Below, piece after piece: positions 1-4,764 of a stretch of 4,764 nucleotides of DNA. Where the stretch lies: the IMG/VR virus record IMGVR_UViG_2663762945_000003, one strand, 5' to 3'. Under the pieces are notes generated by a model, which had not been told where the DNA came from, made no database searches, and saw nothing but the letters and a program-made list of their open reading frames with translations. Each line of letters begins with the position of its first letter. Positions within the stretch are counted from its first letter, which is position 1. This DNA comes from a virus. Its lineage: Duplodnaviria > Heunggongvirae > Uroviricota > Caudoviricetes. The position numbers and the translations under genes were made by a program.

Positions 1-849
1 CTTTTTGCAAGTTACTGTCAGCTTTCCATCTGATTTTTTAATGCCTTCAATTTCAACTTCTTCTGTAAGTTCTTTGTTGGAAAGTTTCTCACGTGGGTTT
101 CTTATCATTTCGGCAATATCACGCTTATCTAATTCGATCTTTGCCATACCATTAAACTCTACTCTGTCAGCATCTGAGACGCCTTTCAACACCCCAACCA
201 CAGCATTTGAAGTATGGGATTGAATTCCCTCTGAAATCTCCCTCGCAGCTGCTGTGGCAGTATGAGCAGAAAGAACTTCAACCATGCCATCTTTAAGCAG
301 TCTCATTTGCTCAGTTTGGCTGTTGGTGTCGTTGAGGCCTTCATCAATCTCAAGTTGCTTCATTTTTTCTATATGGCGATCTTTTTGTCTCGACTTTATC
401 AGCCAAGCCCCAGTAAGGATCAGCGATATGAGAACGAGACATATAGCTTTCTCTGTTCCAGTCATACCTTGTGTTGACCTCTCAAATGCAACACCAAATG
501 AATCAATTACATCCTTTATAGCAACAAGTAGGTCAGTACAGCCAGGCTCAACTTTAAAAATTATCTCAAGCTCTTTTCTATCACTGTCTTTCAAATGCTT
601 GAGATTATCCGTTCCTCGCCTTACAAGCATAAACGCTTTATAAAGTTCGGTCTGAAACTCGCACATACCTTGAGCTAAAGAGGACGGTATCGTCCCATTA
701 TACCGGTCTGGATCACCATAAATCTTGAAACTTACGTGGTTAACAAAATCAATTTTAATGTCATTGATAGATATTTGCTGACCTTTCTGAACTCTTTCTA
801 AAAACTCTGAAACGTCGCTTAATGATGAGATATCAATTTGATTGTCCAT
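1..849 (-). CDS. Hypothetical protein, N-terminal 283 codons (3' end lies beyond window start); non-Rex gene at the rexA/rexB position immediately downstream of cI; one predicted transmembrane helix
   Basis: Own translation of the reverse complement: ATG at 849..847, then 283 sense codons with no stop down to nt 1 (MDNQIDISSLSDVSEFLERVQKGQQISINDIKIDFVNHVSFKIYGDPDRYNGTIPSSLAQGMCEF...). It is absent from the supplied ORF track only because it has no in-window stop. Possible weak SD (GAGAA) 5-9 nt upstream of the ATG. Only 22 bp separate it from the cI stop, same strand, so it is probably co-transcribed with cI. Hydrophobic stretch AICLVLISLILTGAWLI (about residues 152-168) followed by a basic cluster KSRQKDRH. 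Does not match RexA as I recall it. The three + strand ORFs in the track (5..223, 262..477, 284..643) overlap it antisense and are taken as spurious. Confidence 0.75.
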   Translation of the reverse strand, partial: MDNQIDISSLSDVSEFLERVQKGQQISINDIKIDFVNHVSFKIYGDPDRYNGTIPSSLAQGMCEFQTELYKAFMLVRRGTDNLKHLKDSDRKELEIIFKVEPGCTDLLVAIKDVIDSFGVAFERSTQGMTGTEKAICLVLISLILTGAWLIKSRQKDRHIEKMKQLEIDEGLNDTNSQTEQMRLLKDGMVEVLSAHTATAAAREISEGIQSHTSNAVVGVLKGVSDADRVEFNGMAKIELDKRDIAEMIRNPREKLSNKELTEEVEIEGIKKSDGKLTVTCKK

Positions 850-871
850 ATCTTTTCTCAATGTTATTGTG

Positions 872-1588
<717 letters not shown>

Positions 1589-1591
1589 TTA

Positions 1592-1620
1592 AATCTATCA
1601 CCGCAAGGGATAAATATCTA
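1592..1620 (-). promoter_or_regulatory. PRM promoter (cI maintenance promoter); -10 TAGATT (1597..1592), -35 TAGATA (1620..1615)
   Basis: Hexamers read directly on the minus strand at the positions expected from lambda; the -10 lies 7 nt upstream of the cI ATG (leaderless mRNA). Confidence 0.8.
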
Positions 1621-1659
1621 ACACCGTGCGTGTTGACTGCTTTACCTCTAGCGGTGATA
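1596..1659. promoter_or_regulatory. Right operator OR: OR3 1596..1612 (TATCACCGCAAGGGATA), OR2 1619..1635 (TAACACCGTGCGTGTTG), OR1 1643..1659 (TACCTCTAGCGGTGATA)
   Basis: Three 17-bp partially palindromic sites between the divergent cI and cro starts. OR3 and OR2 match the lambda operators as I recall them; OR1 differs at one position (A at 1650 where lambda has G). Confidence 0.88.
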
Positions 1660-1661
1660 AT
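1633..1661 (+). promoter_or_regulatory. PR promoter; -35 TTGACT (1633..1638), 17-bp spacer, -10 GATAAT (1656..1661)
   Basis: Near-consensus sigma-70 hexamers with 17-bp spacing overlapping OR2/OR1, followed by SD AAGGAGG (1675..1681) and the cro ATG at 1686. Confidence 0.88.
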
Positions 1662-1676
1662 AATTGCATGTACTAA

Positions 1677-1886
<210 letters not shown>

Positions 1887-1893
1887 ATAACAC

Positions 1894-1925
1894 CGCTCTT
1901 ACACATCACAGCCCTGAAAAAGGGC
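1894..1925 (+). promoter_or_regulatory. nutR N-utilisation site: boxA CGCTCTTA (1894..1901) and boxB hairpin GCCCTGAAAAAGGGC (1911..1925); Rho-dependent tR1 region follows (about 1926..1990)
   Basis: boxB is a perfect 5-bp stem (GCCCT/AGGGC) around a GAAAA loop, as in lambda nutR; boxA lies 9 nt upstream. tR1 is inferred from position only, since Rho-dependent terminators lack a crisp motif. Confidence 0.8.
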
Positions 1926-1994
1926 ATCCAATTAAACCACACCTATGGTGTATGCATTTATTTTCATACATTCAATCAATTGTTATCTAAGGAA

Positions 1995-2027
1995 ATACTT
2001 ACATATGGTTCGTGCAAACAAACGCAA
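1995..2027 (-). promoter_or_regulatory. PRE (promoter for repressor establishment) with CII-binding direct repeats TTGC-N6-TTGC (2027..2024 and 2017..2014, minus strand) and -10 AAGTAT (2000..1995)
   Basis: Minus strand reads TTGCGTTTGTTTGC flanking the -35 position, the classic CII recognition tetrads, with a -10-like hexamer downstream; the element overlaps the 5' end of cII on the opposite strand as in lambda. Confidence 0.75.
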
Positions 2028-2298
2028 CGAGGCACTACGAATCGAGAGTGCGTTGCTTAACAAAATCGCAATGCTTGGAACTGAGAAGACAGCGGAAGCT
2101 GTGGGAGTTGATAAGTCGCAGATCAGCAGGTGGAAGAGGGACTGGATTCCAAAGTTCTCAATGCTGCTTGCTGTTCTTGAATGGGGGGTCGTTGACGACG
2201 ACATGGCTCGATTGGCGCGACAAGTTGCTGCGATTCTCACCAATAAAAAACGCCCGGCGGCAACCGAGCGTTCTGAACAAATCCAGATGGAGTTCTGA
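2005..2298 (+). CDS. cII: CII transcriptional activator, 97 aa
   Basis: Track ORF 1945..2298 contains MVRANKRNEALRIESALLNKIAMLGTEKTAEAVGVDKSQISRWKRDWIPKFSMLLAVLEWGVVDDDMARLARQVAAILTNKKRPAATERSEQIQMEF. The true start is the internal ATG at 2005, preceded by SD AAGGAAAT (1990..1997); the 20 extra upstream codons of the track ORF are read-through of the intergenic region. Confidence 0.95.
   Translation: MVRANKRNEALRIESALLNKIAMLGTEKTAEAVGVDKSQISRWKRDWIPKFSMLLAVLEWGVVDDDMARLARQVAAILTNKKRPAATERSEQIQMEF
2244..2270 (-). terminator. Intrinsic terminator of oop RNA (7-bp stem CGCUCGG/CCGGGCG with one G-U pair, 6-nt loop, then U6)
   Basis: Read on the minus strand: CGCTCGG-TTGCCG-CCGGGCG-TTTTTT (plus-strand A-run 2245..2250). 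It lies inside the 3' end of cII on the opposite strand, where the oop terminator is expected. Confidence 0.7.
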
Positions 2299-2321
2299 GG
2301 TCATTACTGGATCTATCAACA
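2244..2321 (-). ncRNA. oop: oop antisense RNA (about 77 nt), antisense to the 3' end of cII
   Basis: Bounded by the PO promoter (predicted start near 2321) and the intrinsic terminator at 2244..2270; length and position match lambda oop. Ends are inferred, not mapped. Confidence 0.6.
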
Positions 2322-2328
2322 GGAGTCA

Positions 2329-2357
2329 TTATGACAAATACAGCAAAAATACTCAAC
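2329..2357 (-). promoter_or_regulatory. PO promoter for oop; -35 TTGAGT (2357..2352), 17-bp spacer, -10 CATAAT (2334..2329)
   Basis: Hexamers read on the minus strand; the -10 overlaps the O start codon on the opposite strand. Confidence 0.6.
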
Positions 2358-3230
2358 TTCGGCAGAGGTAACTTTGCCGGACAGGAGCGTAATGTGGCAG
2401 ATCTCGATGATGGTTACGCCAGACTATCAAATATGCTGCTTGAGGCTTATTCGGGCGCAGATCTGACCAAGCGACAGTTTAAAGTGCTGCTTGCCATTCT
2501 GCGTAAAACCTATGGGTGGAATAAACCAATGGACAGAATCACCGATTCTCAACTTAGCGAGATTACAAAGTTACCCGTCAAACGGTGCAATGAAGCCAAG
2601 TTAGAACTCGTCAGAATGAATATTATCAAGCAGCAAGGCGGCATGTTTGGACCAAATAAAAACATCTCAGAATGGTGCATCCCTCAAAACGAGGGAAAAT
2701 CCCCTAAAACGAGGGATAAAACATCCCTCAAATTGGGGGATTGCTATCCCTCAAAACAGGGGGACACAAAAGACACTATTACAAAAGAAAAAAGAAAAGA
2801 TTATTCGTCAGAGAATTCTGGCGAATCCTCTGACCAGCCAGAAAACGACCTTTCTGTGGTGAAACCGGATGCTGCAATTCAGAGCGGCAGCAAGTGGGGG
2901 ACAGCAGAAGACCTGACCGCCGCAGAGTGGATGTTTGACATGGTGAAGACTATCGCACCATCAGCCAGAAAACCGAATTTTGCTGGGTGGGCTAACGATA
3001 TCCGCCTGATGCGTGAACGTGACGGACGTAACCACCGCGACATGTGCGTGCTGTTCCGCTGGGCATGCCAGGACAACTTCTGGTCCGGTAACGTGCTGAG
3101 CCCGGCCAAACTCCGCGATAAGTGGACCCAACTCGAAATCAACCGTAACAAGCAACAGGCAGGCGTGACAGCCAGCAAACCAAAACTCGACCTGACAAAC
3201 ACAGACTGGATTTACGGGGTGGATCTATGA
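2331..3230 (+). CDS. O: Replication initiator protein O, 299 aa
   Basis: ORF track protein MTNTAKILNFGRGNFAGQERNVADLDDGYARLSNMLLEAYSGADLTKRQFKVLLAILRKTYGWNKPMDRITDSQ... matches lambda O as recalled; it contains the origin iterons in its middle and overlaps P by ATGA. Confidence 0.96.
   Translation: MTNTAKILNFGRGNFAGQERNVADLDDGYARLSNMLLEAYSGADLTKRQFKVLLAILRKTYGWNKPMDRITDSQLSEITKLPVKRCNEAKLELVRMNIIKQQGGMFGPNKNISEWCIPQNEGKSPKTRDKTSLKLGDCYPSKQGDTKDTITKEKRKDYSSENSGESSDQPENDLSVVKPDAAIQSGSKWGTAEDLTAAEWMFDMVKTIAPSARKPNFAGWANDIRLMRERDGRNHRDMCVLFRWACQDNFWSGNVLSPAKLRDKWTQLEINRNKQQAGVTASKPKLDLTNTDWIYGVDL
2679..2806. repeat. ori-lambda: four about 18-bp iterons (2679..2696 ATCCCTCAAAACGAGGGA; 2699..2716 ATCCCCTAAAACGAGGGA; 2723..2740 ATCCCTCAAATTGGGGGA; 2746..2764 ATCCCTCAAAACAGGGGGA) followed by an AT-rich unwinding region (about 2766..2806)
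   Basis: Direct repeats with internal dyad symmetry (TCCCTC...GAGGGA) are visible in the sequence, followed by an A-rich tract (ACAAAAGAAAAAAGAAAAGATTATT), all inside the O reading frame as in lambda. Confidence 0.9.
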
Positions 3231-3928
3231 AAAACATCGCCGCACAGATGGTTAACTTTGACCGTGAGCAGATGCGTCGGATCGCCAACAACATGCCGGA
3301 ACAGTACGACGAAAAGCCGCAGGTACAGCAGGTAGCGCAGATCATCAACGGTGTGTTCAGCCAGTTACTGGCAACTTTCCCGGCGAGCCTGGCTAACCGT
3401 GACCAGAACGAAGTGAACGAAATCCGTCGCCAGTGGGTTCTGGCTTTTCGGGAAAACGGGATCACCACGATGGAACAGGTTAACGCAGGAATGCGCGTAG
3501 CCCGTCGGCAGAATCGACCATTTCTGCCATCACCCGGGCAGTTTGTTGCATGGTGCCGGGAAGAAGCATCCGTTACCGCCGGACTGCCAAACGTCAGCGA
3601 GCTGGTTGATATGGTTTACGAGTATTGCCGGAAGCGAGGCCTGTATCCGGATGCGGAGTCTTATCCGTGGAAATCAAACGCGCACTACTGGCTGGTTACC
3701 AACCTGTATCAGAACATGCGGGCCAATGCGCTTACTGATGCGGAATTACGCCGTAAGGCCGCAGATGAGCTTGTCCATATGACTGCGAGAATTAACCGTG
3801 GTGAGGCGATCCCTGAACCAGTAAAACAACTTCCTGTCATGGGCGGTAGACCTCTAAATCGTGCACAGGCTCTGGCGAAGATCGCAGAAATCAAAGCTAA
3901 GTTCGGACTGAAAGGAGCAAGTGTATGA
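3227..3928 (+). CDS. P: Replication protein P (DnaB helicase loader), 233 aa
   Basis: ORF track protein MKNIAAQMVNFDREQMRRIANNMPEQYDEKPQVQQVAQIINGVFSQLLATFPASLANRDQNEVNEIRRQW... matches lambda P as recalled; start overlaps the O stop (ATGA). Confidence 0.96.
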   Translation: MKNIAAQMVNFDREQMRRIANNMPEQYDEKPQVQQVAQIINGVFSQLLATFPASLANRDQNEVNEIRRQWVLAFRENGITTMEQVNAGMRVARRQNRPFLPSPGQFVAWCREEASVTAGLPNVSELVDMVYEYCRKRGLYPDAESYPWKSNAHYWLVTNLYQNMRANALTDAELRRKAADELVHMTARINRGEAIPEPVKQLPVMGGRPLNRAQALAKIAEIKAKFGLKGASV

Positions 3929-4215
3929 CGGGCAAAGAGGCAATTATTCATTACCTGGGGACGCATAATAGCTTCTGTGCGCCGGACGTTGCCGCGCTAA
4001 CAGGCGCAACAGTAACCAGCATAAATCAGGCCGCGGCTAAAATGGCACGGGCAGGTCTTCTGGTTATCGAAGGTAAGGTCTGGCGAACGGTGTATTACCG
4101 GTTTGCTACCAAGGAAGAACGGGAAGGAAAGATGAGCACGAACCTGATTTTTAAGGAGTGTCACCAGAGTGCCGCGATGAAACGGGTATTGGCAGTATAT
4201 GGAGTTAAAAGATGA
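3925..4215 (+). CDS. ren: Ren protein (Rex-exclusion endurance), 96 aa
   Basis: ORF track protein MTGKEAIIHYLGTHNSFCAPDVAALTGATVTSINQAAAKMARAGLLVIEGKVWRTVYYRFATKEEREGKMSTNLIFKECHQSAAMKRVLAVYGVKR matches lambda Ren as recalled; ATGA overlap with the P stop. Confidence 0.93.
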   Translation: MTGKEAIIHYLGTHNSFCAPDVAALTGATVTSINQAAAKMARAGLLVIEGKVWRTVYYRFATKEEREGKMSTNLIFKECHQSAAMKRVLAVYGVKR

Positions 4216-4240
4216 CCATCTACATCACTGAGCTAATAAC

Positions 4241-4273
4241 AGGCCTGCTGGTAATCGCAGGCCTTTTTATTTG
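4241..4273 (+). terminator. tR2-like intrinsic terminator (8-bp stem AGGCCTGC/GCAGGCCT, 8-nt loop, T-rich tail TTTTTATTT)
   Basis: Perfect inverted repeat 4241..4248 / 4257..4264 followed directly by a T-run, in the ren-ninB intergenic region where lambda tR2 lies. Confidence 0.75.
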
Positions 4274-4288
4274 GGGGAGAGGGAAGTC

Positions 4289-4764
4289 ATGAAAAAACTA
4301 ACCTTTGAAATTCGATCTCCAGCACATCAGCAAAACGCTATTCACGCAGTACAGCAAATCCTTCCAGACCCAACCAAACCAATCGTAGTAACCATTCAGG
4401 AACGCAACCGCAGCTTAGACCAAAACAGGAAGCTATGGGCCTGCTTAGGTGACGTCTCTCGTCAGGTTGAATGGCATGGTCGCTGGCTGGATGCAGAAAG
4501 CTGGAAGTGTGTGTTTACCGCAGCATTAAAGCAGCAGGATGTTGTTCCTAACCTTGCCCAGCAGGACAGCTACGTGCTGGCAGATGTGCTGGCAACGTTG
4601 CGCGCGGCAGGTGTTCCAGCGTTAACCGATGACAACTATGCGGTGATGAAGGTGGCTCGAATCGGCTGTGAATGCGGCGCGAATGTCTCGACATTTTCCT
4701 GCTTCAAGCTATTTGGGCCAGAGGGTGTTGGTGCAGTGGTCGGCGATGCTGATGTTATCAACCG
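4289..4764 (+). CDS. ninB: NinB (Orf-family recombination mediator) N-terminal about 90 codons, continuing in frame into non-lambda sequence; no stop before the window end (chimeric or fused ORF)
   Basis: Own translation from the ATG at 4289 (SD GAGGGAAG upstream): MKKLTFEIRSPAHQQNAIHAVQQILPDPTKPIVVTIQERNRSLDQNRKLWACLGDVSRQVEWHGRWLDAESWKCVFTAALKQQDVVPNLA, which matches lambda NinB as recalled. From about nt 4559 the frame continues QQDSYVLADVLATLRAAGVPALTDDNYAVMKVARIGCECGANVSTFSCFKLFGPEGVGAVVGDADVIN, which is not NinB-like. Lambda NinB is 146 aa and would have ended before the window end, yet this frame is open for 158+ codons. Not in the ORF track because it has no in-window stop. Confidence 0.7.
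   Translation, partial: MKKLTFEIRSPAHQQNAIHAVQQILPDPTKPIVVTIQERNRSLDQNRKLWACLGDVSRQVEWHGRWLDAESWKCVFTAALKQQDVVPNLAQQDSYVLADVLATLRAAGVPALTDDNYAVMKVARIGCECGANVSTFSCFKLFGPEGVGAVVGDADVIN

Follow-up and report, generated by a model that had tools for sequence, protein, structure and literature searches.

An in-frame junction between ninB and yhfS at the end of a lambdoid prophage contig is probably an assembly join

INTRODUCTION

Can a phage recombination gene acquire a new C-terminal half from DNA that does not belong to any phage? This question is raised by the 4764-nt window described here (the whole stretch of DNA that was analysed), in which the lambda-like gene ninB loses its resemblance to lambda in the middle of the coding sequence and the reading frame nevertheless stays open to the last nucleotide. 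The original prediction, which was made from the sequence alone, offered two readings of this arrangement. The first was a natural chimera in which the N-terminal part of NinB carries a new C-terminal domain, and the second was a scar that fuses the prophage to unrelated cargo or host DNA. A chimeric assembly and a divergent but homologous NinB C-terminus were named as the findings that would overturn both.

We assign a probability of about 80% to the reading that the junction between ninB and yhfS arose as an artefact of draft assembly, through scaffolding, gap filling, or chimeric extension, and is not a gene fusion. The evidence comes from the identity of the tail, from the composition of the deposited record at the seam, and from the same phage and host loci in other genomes.

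RESULTS

A lambdoid immunity and replication region

The window is the entire 4764-bp contig CDRC01000328.1, which is entry 328 of the whole-genome shotgun (WGS) set of draft assembly GCA_000939695.1. The source assembly of this contig is a fragmented short-read E. coli draft. The contig consists of three parts: 4558 nt of prophage, a 2-nt seam that holds the sole N, and 204 nt of the host gene yhfS. Its features are as follows.

1..849, minus strand: codons 1-283 of a 345-aa ORF that the contig start truncates; collinear with L003:5812-6849 (minus strand), WP_001507092.1, "hypothetical protein"
872..1585, minus strand: cI repressor of the lambda type, 237 aa, a natural variant; from the ORF list, and annotated as LexA family protein or cI in PCP06101 and mEp332
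1686..1886, plus strand: cro; from the ORF list and the PCP06101 annotation
2005..2298, plus strand: cII; matches the coding sequence at L003 8005-8298
2331..3230, plus strand: replication protein O; from the ORF list and PF04492
3227..3928, plus strand: replication protein P; from the ORF list and PF06992
3925..4215, plus strand: ren, the rare R80H allele (A at 4163); from comparison with PCP06101 and a protein look-up
4241..4264, plus strand: hairpin with a T-run, resembling a terminator, in the ren-ninB interval; a terminator is annotated there in phage 434 records
4289..4558, plus strand: ninB (orf) codons 1-90, the last phage-derived sequence; from identity to 434, ev099, and lambda and from Pfam NinB
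4559..4560, no strand: the join; 4559 is C (yhfS-like, where the phage has G) and 4560 is N as deposited, A in the window
4561..4764, plus strand: internal yhfS fragment, 100% identical to K-12 MG1655; together with 4559-4560 it makes up codons 147-214 plus 2 nt

Positions 1-4558 belong to a lambdoid prophage that has lambda immunity and is of the same type as mEp332 and PCP06101. They are collinear with the prophage of E. coli PCP06101 at 99.9% identity, with 4 mismatches and none at all over 1-1424, and with phage mEp332 at 99.7% identity. From position 876 onward, lambda itself is 98.6% identical at the DNA level. The order of genes is that of lambda, running from the ORF of unknown function and cI, both on the minus strand, through cro, cII, O, P, and ren to the hairpin and ninB. 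We take the position of the hairpin to be that of lambda tR2. The phage part of the window is an ordinary immunity and replication region, in which cro, cII, O, and P are all of the lambda type.

Several smaller observations concern this region. The 345-aa ORF, which lacks its last 63 codons in the window, directly adjoins cI, in the place that rexA/rexB have in lambda. It has no match to a Pfam or PADLOC family at E <= 0.01, and in mEp332 it is labelled "T2SS GspM containing protein". We regard it as a candidate lysogen-expressed exclusion or moron gene. The cI of the window probably differs from that of laboratory lambda at several places, for example near residues 3, 70, 125-129, 138, 160, and 178.

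Two of the differences from PCP06101 are as follows. Position 1640 (C here, T there) falls inside the cI-cro intergenic region at 1586-1685, which in lambda holds the OR operators along with PR and PRM. The R80H substitution in Ren, which is another of only four differences, is rare: it occurs in 27 blocks of a public assembly collection, versus 15,208 for the O protein of the window. Among the contigs that encode it is CDRC01000328.1, whose final gene is a product of 158 codons that reaches the contig edge. This allele comes from E. coli and marks a small group of near-identical prophages.

Phage identity ends after codon 90 of ninB

The ninB gene starts at 4289, and the DNA of its codons 1-90 (4289-4558, 270 nt) matches phages 434 and ev099 with 100% identity and lambda with 99.7%. 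All 413 phage records that match here, together with all prophage matches, end at 4558. The Pfam NinB family (PF05772) gives a significant match (E = 5e-35; score 120.6 bits, cut-off 23.8), which covers only residues 3-91 and therefore profile positions 2-95 of 131. A full-length domain takes up about 131 profile positions in proteins of 146 aa in lambda-type phages, and the ORF of the window falls short of this. The gene resembles that of the lambda NinB/Orf recombination mediator in its place after ren and the tR2-like terminator, but compared with its 146-aa relatives the contig lacks the C-terminal 56 residues.

In these respects the original prediction described the sequence accurately. 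It had stated that roughly 90 lambda-like codons precede a break at about nt 4558, and identity indeed ends after codon 90. The frame does stay open to the end of the window, giving 158 codons, and the GC content does rise, from 47.8% at 4289-4558 to 56.3% at 4559-4764. The other two plus-strand frames close soon after the junction, as had been noted, with stops 22 and 24 codons past it, and the minus-strand frame that is open at the window edge is the 42-codon fragment reported. ORFs on the minus strand of the tail are noise, antisense to a coding region.

A breakpoint hot spot near residue 90 of NinB was considered and rejected. The relevant NinB variants in the database (P0013, P0015, P0017, and others) show 100% identity for about the first 90 aa before diverging, but they continue as ...PNLAGNG..., and their frameshifts or truncations lie further downstream.

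The tail is an internal piece of yhfS

Positions 4561-4764 are identical at 204 of 204 nt to an internal part of yhfS from E. coli K-12 MG1655, read on the same strand as ninB. This stretch is present in 5050 of the 5426 complete E. coli genomes. YhfS is a PLP-dependent aminotransferase-like protein of class I/II fold whose gene belongs to the php-yhfSTUVWX region. The expectation that unrelated host DNA might follow the prophage is therefore borne out as a description of the sequence.

The yhfS coding sequence starts at 2561 in L001 and the match at 3001, which makes window position 4559 the first base of codon 147. Translation of the tail yields YhfS residues 148-214 exactly, including the FSCFKLF stretch, and residue 147 as well if the N is read as C. 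Because ninB codon 90 ends at 4558, the join falls on codon boundaries of both genes and is in frame. Past 4558 the frame remains open only because it is that of yhfS itself. That the two frames agree is a coincidence, for which the chance is one in three.

Compared with E. coli YhfS, the window holds only 68 internal codons. It lacks the N-terminal half, the C-terminus, and the neighbouring genes. No complete yhfS is present, nor is its native context (yhfT upstream and frlR downstream), and phage DNA precedes the fragment. What the tail encodes is not a domain but an inner portion of a PLP enzyme of fold type I.

Truncated forms of YhfS do occur in the database. A 209-aa cluster from Logan assemblies (P0121, 132 member sequences) breaks after residue 204, where ...GPEGVG is followed by QLNRC, and may represent a lineage-specific disruption of yhfS. 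Its break is not the yhfS boundary seen in the window. An IS-bounded yhfS fragment was also entertained as the source of the tail and set aside: among database records of truncated YhfS none starts or ends at 147 or 214, and P0121 is the nearest.

The only ambiguous base of the contig marks the seam

In the deposited record CDRC01000328.1, position 4560 is N, whereas the window shows A. The ambiguity code appears to have been replaced during preparation of the window. This is the sole difference between the two over 1425-4764, and it is the only ambiguity in the contig because 1-1424 is identical to PCP06101 and the remainder is otherwise the same as the window. At the join the deposited record reads ...AACCTTGCCCNGCAGGACAGC..., and K-12 yhfS reads CCGCAGGAC at the corresponding position. 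The glutamine codon 91 (CAG) is accordingly a product of the A at 4560, not of a real base call.

The breakpoint and the ambiguous base are no more than 2 nt apart. For a single N placed independently of the break in a contig of 4764 nt, the probability of such proximity is about 0.1%. Position 4559 is C, which fits yhfS and not the phage, and so the N lies 1 nt inside the yhfS side. When the N is taken as C, the match to yhfS extends from 4559, and ...TTGCC of the phage is followed directly by C[N]GCAGG... of yhfS. Such a join is blunt: the two sequences have no base in common at the seam, and nothing is inserted between them. The words that span the breakpoints are CCTTGCCGGGAATGG for intact ninB, CAGCAGCCGCAGGAC for intact yhfS, and CCTTGCCCCGCAGGAC for the junction with N as C.

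An isolated N in a short-read WGS contig is either a placeholder left by a scaffolder or gap-closer or a position at which mapped reads conflict. A literature search for a written statement of a single-N convention in SSPACE or GapFiller turned up nothing usable. Whichever meaning the N has, the seam is without support from an unambiguous base call.

The original prediction had proposed that microhomology be sought at the junction. None is present when N is C. Microhomology or a double template switch through "CAGCAGGA" (4559-4566), which also occurs in lambda ninB both 32 nt downstream and 27 nt upstream of the break, had appeared to be a candidate mechanism and was dropped, because the A at 4560 is N and the join is blunt. 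Furthermore, the longest word common to both the yhfS tail and the prophage is 12 nt, which is the level expected by chance. For this reason neither homologous recombination nor a repeat-induced join accounts for the junction, and the repeat-induced misjoin that we had considered is ruled out.

ninB is intact in other samples, and the junction is not found elsewhere

Three other samples represented among Logan assemblies, L019 (ERR8571716), L020 (ERR738837), and L022 (ERR11438194), are 100% identical to the window over their phage overlap. In each, the sequence reads on through a complete ninB of 146 aa to dam. The same holds for the PCP06101 prophage and for mEp332, where ninE, ninX, rusA, ylcG, Q, and the lysis genes come next. 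With 99.9% identity, the prophage closest to the window resides at the lambda attachment site next to bioA/ybhB. The roughly 58 kb examined around the related prophage, in L003 and L015 together, contain no match to yhfS.

The junction itself is absent from the 5,426 complete E. coli genomes, in which the best coverage of 4540-4764 is 91% and comes from yhfS only. A 31-mer spanning it has zero matches in GTDB representative genomes, IMG/VR, and JGI metagenomes, and a plasmid collection holds one half or the other and never the junction. At the protein level, no NinB-into-YhfS fusion is found among 5.8 billion protein clusters, which include those from NCBI, ENA, and Logan assemblies. The best cluster matches at 100% identity cover at most 57% (the NinB half) or 42% (the YhfS half). 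The same 5.8 billion clusters do not contain the reciprocal product, YhfS(1-146)-NinB(91-146), that is expected from an inversion, and a direct look-up of the 158-aa partial product returned no record.

DISCUSSION

A join made during assembly

The possibility of a chimeric assembly, which the original prediction had named as a way in which it could fail, is the one that the evidence favours. An N stands at the join in the deposited record; the join is situated at the edge of a short contig from a fragmented draft, 205 nt from the contig end and inside a single-copy gene; the junction is absent elsewhere; and ninB is intact elsewhere. Known seams and chimeric ends in short-read drafts look much the same. 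They too show an ambiguous base at a blunt discontinuity between unrelated loci near a contig end, and they too occur in one assembly only. With such a seam both loci would be intact elsewhere, as ninB is in the three other samples, which may come from different isolates. One difference is that the N here sits one base inside the yhfS side and not between the two parts.

The events that would produce this structure can be outlined. Most likely, a scaffolder, a gap-filler, or the extension of a contig end would have added to the prophage contig, at its end, a short piece of yhfS or else a read or fragment that was chimeric. The joining step would have left a one-base placeholder N at the seam, and the later display of this N as A would have created an ORF that looks seamless. 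In the real genome, ninB would then be intact and followed by dam-ninE-ninX-rusA-Q, and yhfS would be intact at its own locus. Since the contig ends after the yhfS piece, it permits no inference about missing nin, Q, or lysis genes, which the original prediction had thought might be lost.

There are counterpoints to an assembly artefact. A join usually needs several concordant read pairs, and these may have come from a PCR-duplicated chimeric fragment or from a real molecule. The artefact reading does not by itself account for a yhfS piece of about 204 nt that forms a unit of its own. In addition, the assembly graph would break at the same two points if the isolate carried a real short patch of yhfS or had been rearranged subclonally.

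A real rearrangement in the isolate

The strongest competitor, though an unlikely one, is a real rearrangement in the isolate or in a subpopulation of it, by which illegitimate recombination linked ninB codon 90 to yhfS codon 147. It could have taken the form of a large inversion between the prophage and yhfS, of a translocation, or of the capture of a short yhfS patch in ninB, and it would leave a truncated NinB, without function, that carries part of YhfS. Some features of the data are compatible with such an event. A scaffolder requires read-pair links before it makes a join, and a short repeated patch of yhfS would account both for the unit of about 204 nt and for the end of the contig at 4764. 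The strand logic also fits an inversion. On the K-12 map, attB-lambda and yhfS are about 2.7 Mb apart, and the ninB of a prophage at attB-lambda and yhfS are on opposite strands, while the window joins sense to sense.

Against this proposal, replichore balance leads one to expect strong counter-selection of a 2.7-Mb inversion (an approximate size) that lies asymmetrically with respect to the axis of replication. The N at the seam and the lack of microhomology also speak against a rearrangement, as does the fact that neither the junction nor the reciprocal fusion is on any record searched. Moreover, three other samples carry the identical phage genotype with ninB intact. Finally, in a genome that carried only the junction, the contig should continue through unique sequence from yhfS to frlR, but it stops after 205 nt.

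A more specific version of this proposal is that the join is physically real and that a non-homologous rearrangement between prophage and chromosome places NinB(1-90) in frame with YhfS(147-361), for a product of about 305 aa, either through a megabase inversion that involves a prophage at the lambda site or through capture of a short yhfS patch. This we judge to be slightly less likely than a real rearrangement of any form. If it did occur, both genes would be inactivated and the immunity and replication region of the prophage would be separated from its late genes.

Mosaic joints, transduction, and a selected fusion

Two well-known routes to novel phage joints were compared with the junction. 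Like the boundaries between modules of mosaic lambdoid phages, it shows an abrupt loss of identity within the nin region. Mosaic joints have phage DNA on both sides and recur in many genomes, whereas here the DNA beyond 4558 is that of a host core gene and the joint is unique: no phage record extends past 4558, and the joint is found in 0 of 5426 E. coli genomes. Specialised transducing phages and other products of aberrant excision, such as lambda gal and lambda bio, also combine phage and host DNA by non-homologous joining. In those cases the host DNA is adjacent to the attachment site and the joints usually have short homology, but yhfS is not near attB-lambda, and the roughly 58 kb examined around the related prophage do not include it.

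It is very improbable that the ORF is a selected, in-frame natural chimera, that is, a functional phage protein made of an N-terminal NinB domain and a new C-terminal domain. This idea, which was the first reading in the original prediction, drew on the open frame and is helped by the placement of the join on codon boundaries of both genes, but two frames agree by chance in one joining of three. It goes unsupported by the nature of the tail, which is an internal piece of yhfS in its own frame. Its DNA is 100% identical to that of a host housekeeping-type gene, so that it is not a diverged domain, and it begins in the middle of a PLP-enzyme fold, at residue 147 of 361. On the other side of the join, the NinB profile breaks off at position 95 of 131, and the 5.8 billion protein clusters contain no homologous fusion.

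That the tail might be a divergent but homologous NinB C-terminus is refuted, because it is 100% yhfS, the Pfam NinB match ends at residue 91, and the true C-terminus of the closest relatives, GNGFVVIGQSTSRMRV..., is unrelated to it.

Implications and related prophages

An assembly join makes this mainly a quality-control result: what appears to be an in-frame chimera is a join at a contig end whose warning N was hidden by an A. Windows taken from draft assemblies should retain their Ns and information on contig ends, since seams will otherwise be misread again and again as mosaic breakpoints or gene fusions. Were the join real, it would be a rearrangement confined to one isolate and lethal to its prophage, and its interest would be modest.

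Other prophages with the same O protein are rearranged just after ren or ninB, and genuine breakpoints therefore do occur in this region elsewhere. In L014 (11838-15746), a gene for a 1302-aa intimin/invasin-like protein takes the place of ren-ninB. In L009 (CP125919.1, 11959-12914), ninB is followed by a hybrid Dam/minor-tail ORF and then by tail genes, an arrangement that suggests a large internal deletion.
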